A stretch of 63,996 bases of DNA, filler included, from Reclinomonas americana ATCC 50394 (lineage: Eukaryota): NCBI GenBank assembly GCA_048213135.1. It is 7 parts of 4 records of this genome, joined end to end, with 100 filler letters (N's around TTAATTAATTAA, not from the genome) between each part and the next. Parts side by side here need not be neighbours in the genome. Positions count along the whole stretch, not along the records: positions 25,131 to 43,048 come from PS015709.1; 6 more parts are not named here. One strand, 5' to 3'. Below are positions 30,090-33,000 of this stretch, piece after piece. The notes under the pieces were generated by a model that was given only the letters and a program-made list of their open reading frames with translations, was not told where the DNA came from and did no database searches. The stretch's first letter is position 1; each line of letters opens with the position of its first letter. The translations under genes were made by a program, and so were the position numbers.

Positions 30090-33000
30090 TCACACAACTC
30101 CAGTCTTGTCTTGCAGGTAGCGCAAGTGACGGTTGGCACGAGTGCACGGCGGTGCGTCGACTCCCGGCTGGCCACAGCAGGACCACTACGGCGTGCAGTA
30201 TTCAGCAGAGTGCGCCACACATGAGCGTGACAGCGACGGGCATTACTTACAAACTGCGCACAATACACACAAGGCATCGTAAGCATCAAGACGAAGCAAA
30301 ACGAACAAGGAAGACGACACGCAACATTCTATGATGCGCATGTGATGGGGCAGGATTGAAGAGAAGGGAGATGAGCTTTGGTAGGTGAGGGAAACAACGG
30401 GTCGGTGAGTGCGTACCGTCTGCATGACAGAGCAACGTGTGAGAAACAACATATCAAAGGGAATGTAGAAAGCGAATCGCGATAATGTACTCACATACTG
30501 CGCGTCGCGGCCAGCAGAATGGGAGGGAAGCAGCGATGGTGAGATACGCAGTTGGAGAAGCGGTGCGACATGAGGGTAGAGCAACTCACTCCCGTCTGCA
30601 CACGAAGGAGTCAGAGAGAAAGAGTGAACAGAGTGGAGCAATCATCGTAGAACACACCAGCTGATTCCAGAAGCCAAGGAGCACGGGAGACGAACAATGA
30701 GTACAAAAGCGAACTACACAGCAAGAAAGACAACAAAAGACAAATGCAGGCATCGAAACCGACCGTCTGCAAAGAGAAGTGTGAGCAATACGATGAGCAG
30801 CGAGAAACAGCATTCGTCACCAACAAGACGCACATACTGCAGAAACAATGACACAATCAGCGAATTGACACAACACACGCGGTCAACACACGCGGTCAGG
30901 AGTGCACTCACATTCTACAGGCGCGGCGAGGTGGATCGTCGACACAAAACAGTGAGTTGCCTGCATGTTCACGATTCAATCGACAAGCAGACACACAAAC
31001 GCACCCCCTGCCGCTGAAAATCAGTATGCAGAACAACAAAGCAATGACAGCAATGGGACGGGACGCACAAACTGAGAGGATAAGTCGAGCCGCACACGGA
31101 AAATGTGAGAAAGACAACCGATGTGAAGGAAACAACACTCCACGCTCACCTCCTGCAATGGGAAACAGTGAGTCATCAACACGAGCACAATATTCAACAG
31201 AAACACTCCTGCCACGCACTCCCGGATGCCAGTAGCAGTTCGCAGTGTCCACATTGAACGACGACTTGCCGCACCGCTGGCACGTCCATGCCTCGTATTT
31301 CAGCGCGTGCTCCACCAGCGCTTTCCGCTGCGGCGGCCAAGAAATCGAATGAGTCCTTGAAACCAGCATTATAATTCTTGTAATAGACACACACCTCGGC
31401 TTCCTCACGCTGTCGCTTCTCCTCCTCTCGGCGACGATACTCCTCGAGCAGGGCCTCTTGCCGTCTCCGCTGCACCACGAGGCTCTTCAATACACAAAGA
31501 TCAATGGAACAAGTAAACATCGCCCCCGCACCTCATCCTCCTCAGCCCGGCGTCTCCTCTCCTCCTCGGCGTCGCGCTGCGCCTGCTCTTGCAGCTGGCG
31601 ATGTCGCGCACGGATAGCTTCGTTGCGCGCTCGCTCCAGTGCATGGCGCTGCTCTTGCAGACGTTGAATCTCGAGTTGCTGTGCATGTGCGCATAAACAG
31701 TCAGCAGCACGCTATCTTGTCGCCGCCAGTGCCGCGCAAAACAACTCACCCGTCTCATGGCATCCTCGCGCTCCACCTGCTCGATAGTCGTCGTCACCTC
31801 ATCCTCCAGTCGCTTGTTCTCGGCCTCCAAGCGATCGGCCTGCGACCACTCGCGTTACTCACCACCAACCGCATAACAATCTCTGTCTTTCTCTTGCTAT
31901 GCTCCATGACCAACCTCGCTCTTGATCCAGTGCTCCGACTGCCGCTTCAACGCCTCCAAATTCAACTCCATCTTCTTCACCTTGTCGGCCATGCGCCCCT
32001 CGAGGTCCTGGATGGCGAATTCGGCCTGCAGTCTTGCTGTGCGCGCCTCCAGATCCTTTTGTCGCATGTGCATGGCCAGCGCCGTCTCCTGTGCACGCGC
32101 ACGCGCGGTGAGCAGCGCTTGGATAGTCAGCGTGATAAAGTCACGCAACATCGTCCTCCAGCGACTGCAACTCGCTCTTGATGCGCGCCTCCTCCAGCAC
32201 GAGCTTGCGACGGCGTTCACGCAACTCCAAGTCTCGCACCGTCTGCTGTCCGACCGCCTCGGGGCGCAAGTCGGTCCGACGATCCGAGTCGAGCTGGCGG
32301 AACTGGACGTCGACGAGGGGGGGTCAGCAAAGGCGCAGAAGGGGAGGAAGACGATGAATAACGCACAGCTTCCTCCAGTCGCACAAGCTCGTGATTGAGC
32401 CAGCGGCACTCCTCGTCCAGCCGATCGCGACGCTCCCGCAGGTGGAGATTGCGCTGCATCTTGAGGCGCTCGGTGGTGGCCTCCACCAGCAGCAATTCGG
32501 CGTTTCCCAGCAACTCCGAACGCTGTGCAAGTGCAGTGCAATCAGCAGGGAACACACACTGTGTTAAAGGGGCAGCGGAGGCGGGCGCACCTCTCGCTCC
32601 AACGTCGACATGCACTCGGCCTTCAGCCGCTCCACGTGGACTTCACGATCGCGCAGTTCCTCCACGGTTTTCTCGGCCTGGTGCGAGAGGGGAAGAGGAG
32701 GGAATGAGAAGGAGGAGGAGGAGAAGGAAAGGAGGGAGAGGAGGAGGAGGAGAAGGAGGAGGAGGAGGAGGAGGAGGAGGAGACAGGAAGAGAGGAGGAA
32801 GAAGAGAAACAACAAGAAAAACAACAAGAAGAAGAAGAGAATGCAGACGACGAAGAGGAGTAAGAAAGAGAACAGCCAACACGAGAGAACAGCGCCAACA
32901 AAAAGATAAGAGAGGAGCAGATATCGATAACACAGCAGAATCTTCTCTCTCAATCACCCACCTCCACACTGAGACGATCCATGGCTCCGCGCAACCGGCG

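Follow-up and report, generated by a model that had tools for sequence, protein, structure and literature searches.

How is a transcript cleared of the 1034 nt that part the last two conventional exons of a coiled-coil zinc-finger gene of the protist Reclinomonas americana ATCC 50394 (assembly GCA_048213135.1)? In the stretch of DNA that we analysed (the window; 63,996 nucleotides, filler included, joined from seven parts of four records), these nucleotides lie at positions 30186..31219 on the minus strand, in the part that comes from PS015709.1, and consist of 13 intron-like units with 12 microexons between them, here called the microexon array. Judged from the sequence, the 13 units are probably real short introns that are taken out in turn; 12 microexons would remain and give the zinc finger a loop of 13 residues.

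Structure of the microexon array

A pattern scan of 30186-31219 (minus strand) located all 12 of the YAG-exon-GT junctions that a first-pass annotation of the window had named. Eleven of the microexons are 3 nt and one is 6 nt long. In the direction of transcription, unit 1 (31153-31219, 67 nt) is followed by a Glu codon (microexon 1, 31150..31152), unit 2 (31072-31149, 78 nt) by a Phe codon (microexon 2, 31069..31071), unit 3 (31008-31068, 61 nt) by a Gly codon (microexon 3, 31005..31007) and unit 4 (30915-31004, 90 nt) by an Asn codon (microexon 4, 30912..30914). Then come unit 5 (30837-30911, 75 nt) with a Tyr codon (microexon 5, 30834..30836), unit 6 (30767-30833, 67 nt) with a Thr codon (microexon 6, 30764..30766), unit 7 (30661-30763, 103 nt) with a Leu codon (microexon 7, 30658..30660) and unit 8 (30596-30657, 62 nt) with the Thr-Gly codons of the 6-nt exon (microexon 8, 30590..30595). 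Unit 9 (30498-30589, 92 nt) precedes a Tyr codon (microexon 9, 30495..30497) and unit 10 (30420-30494, 75 nt) a Thr codon (microexon 10, 30417..30419), after which the weakest unit, unit 11 (30329-30416, 88 nt), leads to an Asn codon (microexon 11, 30326..30328), unit 12 (30254-30325, 72 nt) to a Phe codon (microexon 12, 30251..30253) and unit 13 (30186-30250, 65 nt) to the last exon. All introns of the array are in phase 0, no microexon is a stop triplet and the pyrimidine content of the 13 units is 54-69%.

The first-pass annotation had given both flanks (an upstream exon ending in HPG at 31220 and a WSCC exon starting at 30185) and the kinds of donors correctly, and its stop-free exons and 13 pyrimidine-rich, phase-0 introns of 61-103 nt agree with what we measured. 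It was also right about the end of the upstream exon, the start of which has to be moved to 31327 and does not lie farther upstream.

Some further patterns were seen in and near the array. Unit 3 carries an extra YAG 6 nt upstream of the named acceptor (31005-31016, minus strand), which would give an in-frame exon of 9 nt (31005-31013) as a NAGNAG-like alternative. An additional match to the YAG-exon-GT pattern at 30162-30167 falls within the last exon and is not a member of the array. Eight bases that run from the upstream exon into its donor (31218-31225, minus strand) reappear exactly within the last exon (30160-30167, minus strand), and the 6-nt microexon with its donor (30588-30595, minus strand) repeats eight bases of the same upstream exon-intron border with a shift of one base. 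These recurrences may go back to an old duplication or may be due to chance, for which we estimate about 2% for a single recurrence in 1.1 kb.

The array is not a product of chance

The array as such is not due to chance, since YAG-N3-GT occurs 11 times within its 1034 nt, against 1.4 expected from the remaining window (Poisson P=3e-7); the whole minus strand of the 64-kb window holds 93 such matches. The stricter pattern YAG-N3-GTRNG was found 22 times on that strand, nine of them in the array. Spacings of 0-12 nt other than 3 gave 0 or 1 match each in the array region, and the same count showed no enrichment of YAG-spacing-GT on the opposite strand of the region. A chain search of both strands of the window, in which complete intron-like units had to follow each other within 12 nt under strict criteria, returned a chain of six at the array that was interrupted only at weaker donors; elsewhere in the window no comparable chain was found on either strand, the other chains stopping at two.

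The units resemble introns of this genome

This genome has an extremely high density of introns, which are short and very uniform. An example is the PB1-kinase gene of the window (26549-27416, plus strand), in which introns of about 57-72 nt separate exons of 31, 47 and 58 nt; joining these exons gives back the catalytic-loop and DFG motifs of the kinase. These introns are validated by homology because of that restoration, and they carry CTCAC or TTGAC as branch-like motifs.

For a broader comparison, introns were harvested from other genes under the requirement of coding flanks, a broken reading frame and a sufficient signal score. At the thresholds used, this gave 14 candidates in the window and none in a reversed-sequence control; together with the eight ordinary introns of the array gene they form a set of 22 reference introns, all outside the array, from which the splice matrices were built. 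All 13 array units have GT...YAG ends. Their mean donor plus acceptor score is 8.1, whereas 2676 random GT..AG pairs of comparable length average -1.4 (P=2e-6). The reference introns reach 11.4 (leave-one-out), a difference from the array that is not significant (P=0.13), in a comparison that is blunted because the reference introns were chosen partly by signal score and their mean is inflated accordingly. In length, the units (61-103 nt) compare with 59-144 nt in 21 of the 22 reference introns; these length statistics are limited to introns of at most 150 nt, permissive and greedy long-range harvests having been dropped because their pairs jumped across exons.

The region before the acceptor points in the same direction. 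In the reference introns, the interval 10-50 nt before the acceptor is enriched in GCTGA, CTGAT and CTGAC, followed by CTCAC-like words, and 12 of the 13 array units have a branch-like CT[CG]AY at this distance, where dinucleotide shuffles give 4.6 (P<0.001). CTCAY is the preferred form in the array (9/13) and CTGAY in the reference introns (8/22), CTCAC being also the motif of the kinase introns validated by homology; the looser CTNAY, 10-44 nt before the acceptor, was found in all 13 units and in 14 of the 22 reference introns. The AG-free stretch before the acceptor has a median of 60 nt in the array units and of 26 nt in shuffles (P=0.0017), the 13 units pooled contain within their final 30 nt a single AG where 9.7 are expected (P=0.0007), and the first AG after each branch-like motif is the nearest acceptor. 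In size, in the scores of both splice sites, in the branch-like motif and in the zone free of AG, each unit looks like an ordinary local intron.

All 12 gaps between the junctions are multiples of 3, and that the microexons are all of such a length and free of stops is required only if they are translated. The uniform phase 0 counts for less, since phase 0 is common in this genome: among introns harvested with intron-only matrices its share is 66-75% (19/29, 16/22 and 12/16), with an even distribution in the reversed-sequence control.

Several other identities for the units were considered and rejected. Tandem Repeats Finder reported just two small and unrelated repeats and no period near the unit length. 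When the units were aligned locally in all 78 pairs, five scored above the 99th percentile of a mononucleotide-shuffle null and none above its maximum, the match in the two pairs inspected being about 10 nt around the branch-like motif, and end-anchored identity among the units (0.27-0.30) is at the level of unrelated introns and shuffles. The units are not copies of each other, a tandem repeat or introner copies. Nor are they hairpins or mirtrons, as the fold z-scores of all 13 range from -0.48 to +2.20; Rfam gave no match at E<=1 in 29500-32000. A different conventional small exon inside the 1 kb was rejected as well: of 44 in-frame mini-exon segments listed, 12 are the named microexons, and none of the other 32 resembles a zinc-finger loop.

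The triplets as codons

The 13 encoded residues (3 Thr, 2 Tyr, 2 Asn, 2 Phe, 2 Gly, 1 Leu and 1 Glu) have a composition that appears typical of beta-strands and turns. Under a codon model whose training set was confined to Pfam-supported parts of other genes, and which cannot tell coding from AT-rich non-coding sequence, the triplets score +0.66 per codon, the codons of the gene +0.41 and triplets drawn from the array introns -0.42 (P=0.0012). Only eight different codons occur among the 13 (P=0.02-0.09). No two adjacent triplets are the same, which means that target-site duplications are absent. The codon evidence is mixed, owing to the codon endings and base composition taken up below, and such a mixture would be expected if the triplets had come from intron sequence and had afterwards been selected for residues that can be tolerated.

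Zinc-finger context

The two exons that flank the array together hold eight potential zinc ligands. The upstream exon (31220..31327, minus strand; 36 codons, with a phase-0 end at a GTGCG donor) reads C-x2-C-x11-C-x2-H-P-G and the last exon (30090..30185, minus strand; 31 codons and a stop at 30090-30092) W-S-C-C-x9-C-x5-H. With the array translated, the spacings between ligands are x2, x11, x2, x17, x9 and x5, the x17 becoming x4 without the array.

Queried alone, the last exon matched positions 12-29 of the 30 positions of the Pfam BTK motif (PF00779; E=0.035, 14.4 bits). In the protein Atlas a BTK-motif cluster likewise came first for this exon (0.89, 203/256 features), which is a lead only, as no more than 13% of the members of the cluster carry the family. 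The upstream exon gave a weak match to a ribosomal zinc ribbon in Pfam (L37e, 20.5 bits, below the cut-off of 27.6) and generic zinc ribbons only, with chance-level scores, in the Atlas. CHORD was not matched at E<=10 in the Pfam search of the exons.

The zinc ligands of BTK are His143, Cys154, Cys155 and Cys165, i.e. H-x10-CC-x9-C, as given in PMC3836457. For CHORD, PMC2935968 gives the ligands C159, C164, C178, H181, C196, C197, C213 and H218 and places the stretch from His to CC in a three-stranded sheet. The CHORD pattern is C-x4-C-x13-C-x2-H-x14-CC-x15-C-x4-H, and it occurs in tandem pairs. Taken together, the two exons present their eight ligands in the order of CHORD (C,C,C,H,C,C,C,H), and their CC-x9-C is exactly that of BTK. 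The finger shares with the BTK motif this CC-x9-C and the profile positions 12-29, and differs from it in the distance from His to CC (17, or 4, instead of 10) and in the lack of a PH domain; with CHORD it shares the order of the ligands, and differs in its spacings, in being a single copy and not a tandem, and in the lack of a CS domain and of a Pfam match. An earlier claim that the product has about the spacing of a CHORD-like finger is only roughly right, the 17 residues from His to Cys-Cys comparing with 14 in CHORD and 10 in BTK. As known fingers of this type have 10 or 14 residues between His and CC, some coding sequence is expected in the gap.

The host gene and its neighbours

The gene as modelled (30090-33051, minus strand) has ten conventional exons, nine upstream of the array and the last exon. 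Its eight coiled-coil exons lie at 33051-32962, 32677-32591, 32522-32367, 32302-32150, 32088-31915, 31839-31750, 31678-31532 and 31469-31395; these, like the other two conventional exons, have lengths divisible by 3. Almost the whole protein is coiled coil. Under the codon model nine of the ten exons score positive, and they do so in no frame other than the chosen one; the last exon is near zero (-0.05 per codon). The gene model begins at 33051, the true 5' end being beyond the reach of the codon model.

All eight ordinary introns of the gene are in phase 0. They measure 284, 68, 64, 61, 75, 71, 62 and 67 nt, seven of them within 61-75 nt, and their donors are of the same kinds as those of the array, GTTGCG included. 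The 284-nt intron (32678-32961, minus strand) is 82% pyrimidine and mostly a CT/CCT microsatellite, from which it follows that long introns can arise here by repeat expansion.

A convergent neighbour (29543-29965, plus strand) encodes an acidic C-terminal tail and has its stop at 29965, 124 nt from the stop of the array gene, so that both 3' untranslated regions must be very short or overlapping. Pfam searches of 150 of the 241 frames of at least 110 amino acids in the window identified five tandem galactosyltransferases, the PB1-kinase, and gelsolin, Kelch and TPR proteins, a gene set that suggests a GC-rich protist. The five tandem frames (46200-59400, plus strand) each match the first half of Galactosyl_T (PF01762) and form a local array of paralogues. 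Six pairs of N runs, each run 44 bases long and the two runs 12 bases apart, at 5282-5381, 9165-9264, 18854-18953, 25031-25130, 43049-43148 and 62806-62905, are the filler between the parts of the window.

A possible mechanism

We propose that the 1034 nt would function not as one intron but as 13 separate U2-type introns of normal local size, each recognised as a unit of its own (intron definition) in a genome of short and dense introns. Because the introns are short and dense, recognition intron by intron is probable. Splicing would then connect neighbour to neighbour at all 13 units, and it would do so in succession, because adjacent spliceosomes cannot sit 3 nt apart. The inner sites mostly score above the outer donor (4.0) and the outer acceptor (1.5), so that skipping of the whole array is disfavoured. 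What would be left in the mRNA is 39 nt or 13 codons, with an inclusion that is presumably mostly constitutive, and this Thr/Tyr/Asn/Phe/Gly-rich insert, probably a beta-hairpin, would lie between a zinc-binding His and Cys-Cys and complete a BTK/CHORD-like finger at the C-terminus of the coiled-coil protein. Retention of a single unit would break the frame in eight of the 13 cases, and four of the five units with a length divisible by 3 would give an open in-frame insertion.

More tentatively, the triplets might have been recruited from an intron as in-frame stepping stones that split a long intron into pieces of the preferred length; alternatively, an old exon might have been shattered by 12 intron gains.

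Weighing the explanations

A number of observations weigh against successive splicing of 13 introns, in addition to the blunted comparison with the reference introns mentioned above. Thirteen successive splicing events would be costly. Three units at the 3' side of the array score poorly, i.e. unit 11 (-4.9), unit 13 (0.6) and unit 12 (3.7), which correspond to the 28th, 62nd and 79th percentiles of the random GT..AG pairs, and unit 11, with its 88 nt, breaks the frame if it is left in. Codons ending in T make up 6 of the 13 in the array versus 12% in the gene (P=0.003), and the triplets are 38% GC versus 62% in the gene. The BTK score of the last exon (14.4 bits) is below the Pfam cut-off of 24, the 17 residues from His to Cys-Cys fit neither BTK nor CHORD, and sequence searches of the PDB gave nothing meaningful, no solved structure matching. 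Finally, no orthologue or public gene model was found in the protein and metagenome searches.

The array might instead be one long intron, with the donor at 31219 paired to the acceptor at 30186, HPG joined directly to WSCC and the inner sites reduced to relics or decoys. Joining the two exons directly would keep the frame, elsewhere the gene has an intron as long as 284 nt, the triplets are AT-rich and made up of non-preferred codons like non-coding sequence, and units 11-13 are weak. Unused sites would be expected to decay, however, and here nearly every unit has preserved its donor, acceptor, branch-like motif and AG-free zone, the length of all 12 gaps is divisible by 3 and most inner sites score higher than the outer pair; in addition, His-x4-CysCys would remove the hairpin that is found in both BTK and CHORD. 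We consider a single long intron rather improbable. The array might also be a fossil at a decaying or mis-modelled 3' end, in which the WSCC exon is outside the functional transcript because the C-terminus is pseudogenised or the gene ends at or near the HPG exon. The near absence of codon-model signal in the last exon agrees with this, as do its family matches below the cut-off and the failure to find a homologue of any part of the gene, but a fossil would not keep 13 complete sets of splicing signals and a strict spacing in multiples of 3. Moreover, the two exons hold their eight Cys/His ligands in CHORD order with the exact CC-x9-C of BTK, and reading past HPG into the intron would give about 100 residues that are not coding-like, which makes this explanation very unlikely. 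A further proposal concerns the origin of the array only and is compatible with the successive removal of 13 introns, namely that it was born from repeats, by serial tandem duplication of an intron-plus-codon unit or by repeated introner insertion at one hot spot. The small number of distinct codons, the five unit pairs above the 99th percentile and the eight bases of the upstream exon-intron border that recur at the 6-nt exon are in its favour. We nevertheless think it doubtful, as no repeat period close to the unit length was found, the highest scores of unit pairs just reach the maximum of the null, the inspected matches cover about 10 nt around the branch-like motif, end-anchored identity is that of unrelated introns and target-site duplications are absent.

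The first-pass annotation had suggested that the microexons may be used combinatorially, subsets of the 12 exons diversifying the finger loop; donors would then pair with varying downstream acceptors. It was correct in that any subset keeps the frame, all exons being multiples of 3 and all introns in phase 0. Signal strengths also vary widely among the units, unit 3 has two in-frame acceptors, and subsets of about 6 or 10 residues would suit the BTK or CHORD spacing better than all 13. On the other hand, short and dense introns point to intron definition, for which PMC2397502 names intron retention and not exon skipping as the usual error. The AG-free zone between branch-like motif and nearest acceptor favours splicing from neighbour to neighbour, and most inner acceptors outscore the outer one, so that use of every site is favoured; a cytoplasmic-looking coiled-coil protein, moreover, has no obvious need for diversification. 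The proposed diversification was neither supported nor refuted, and we hold it to be unlikely. Quite unlikely, too, is a codon-level splicing device in which stepping-stone exons that arose from intron sequence allow a spliceosome adapted to short introns to clear the 1-kb gap and varying subsets yield a family of zinc fingers (up to 2^12), possibly tuned by conditions; if true, one gene would produce zinc fingers with differing loop lengths and sequences.

Relatives and precedents

Two word-indexed searches with the exons of the gene returned no homologues, and a word-indexed search with the neighbouring galactosyltransferase frame returned none at E<=1e-10. An exhaustive search with a 38-residue zinc-finger query gave five matches, all of them tandem-repeat proteins without the C-x2-H-P-G context, and no paralogue of the finger was found within the window. 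In metagenomes, a scan by protein gave 311 pattern matches of which none was confirmed, and a scan for the exact 26-nt exon stretch gave no match and no transcript-derived contig. Our literature search found no description of a run of one-codon exons or of stacked introns, which is not proof that there is none in print.

The closest precedents are probably the small microexons (1-15 nt) of plants (PMC8831610), which include 1-nt exons in APC11 and VPS55 and an adjacent pair of 5 and 12 nt in a rice gene. As described there, these exons are smaller than the footprint of the spliceosome, have ordinary GT-AG flanks, are coding and constitutive and are missed by annotation, and the array would share these features if its microexons are included as we propose. 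Plant microexons are single or at most paired and are conserved across land plants, whereas the array has 12 in a row, nearly all of the minimal in-frame size and parted by introns of minimal length.

The micro-exon genes (MEGs) of schistosomes, with which the array had been compared before, have exons of 3-81 bp and introns of up to 5 kb, according to a preprint (bioRxiv 10.1101/2023.06.21.545858). They resemble the array in the run of short symmetric exons between conventional exons, any subset of which is in frame. The comparison holds for this symmetry and not beyond it, since MEG introns are long and the products secreted, while the array has introns of 61-103 nt and exons that are nearly all 3 nt, and it affects a single loop of a coiled-coil zinc-finger protein from a protist. 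No homology between the array gene and MEGs is expected.

In the recursive splicing of long fly introns, ratchet points act as zero-length exons and allow stepwise removal (PMC6110457). The likeness lies in the removal of a long stretch in successive pieces via juxtaposed acceptors and donors, as it is described there for flies and as we propose it for the array. Ratchet points are AG/GT junctions that leave no residue in the mRNA, whereas none of the 12 junctions of the array is zero-spaced, so that each splicing step must leave a codon behind. The array would seem to be an extreme variant of known microexons and not a member of the MEG or ratchet-point classes.

Implications

If transcripts confirm the successive removal of 13 introns, the array would be the longest known run of minimal exons, with 12 consecutive ones, each of one or two codons, and 13 introns in 39 nt of coding sequence. 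It would imply that an intron-defining spliceosome copes with 3-nt exons repeatedly and side by side, and would offer a natural substrate for studies of splicing order and of steric limits. It would also point to a route by which coding sequence may come from an intron, a long intron being divided into segments of the favoured size, each division costing one codon. Arrays of this kind would escape gene finders and spliced aligners completely, and similar ones may hide in other intron-dense protist genomes.

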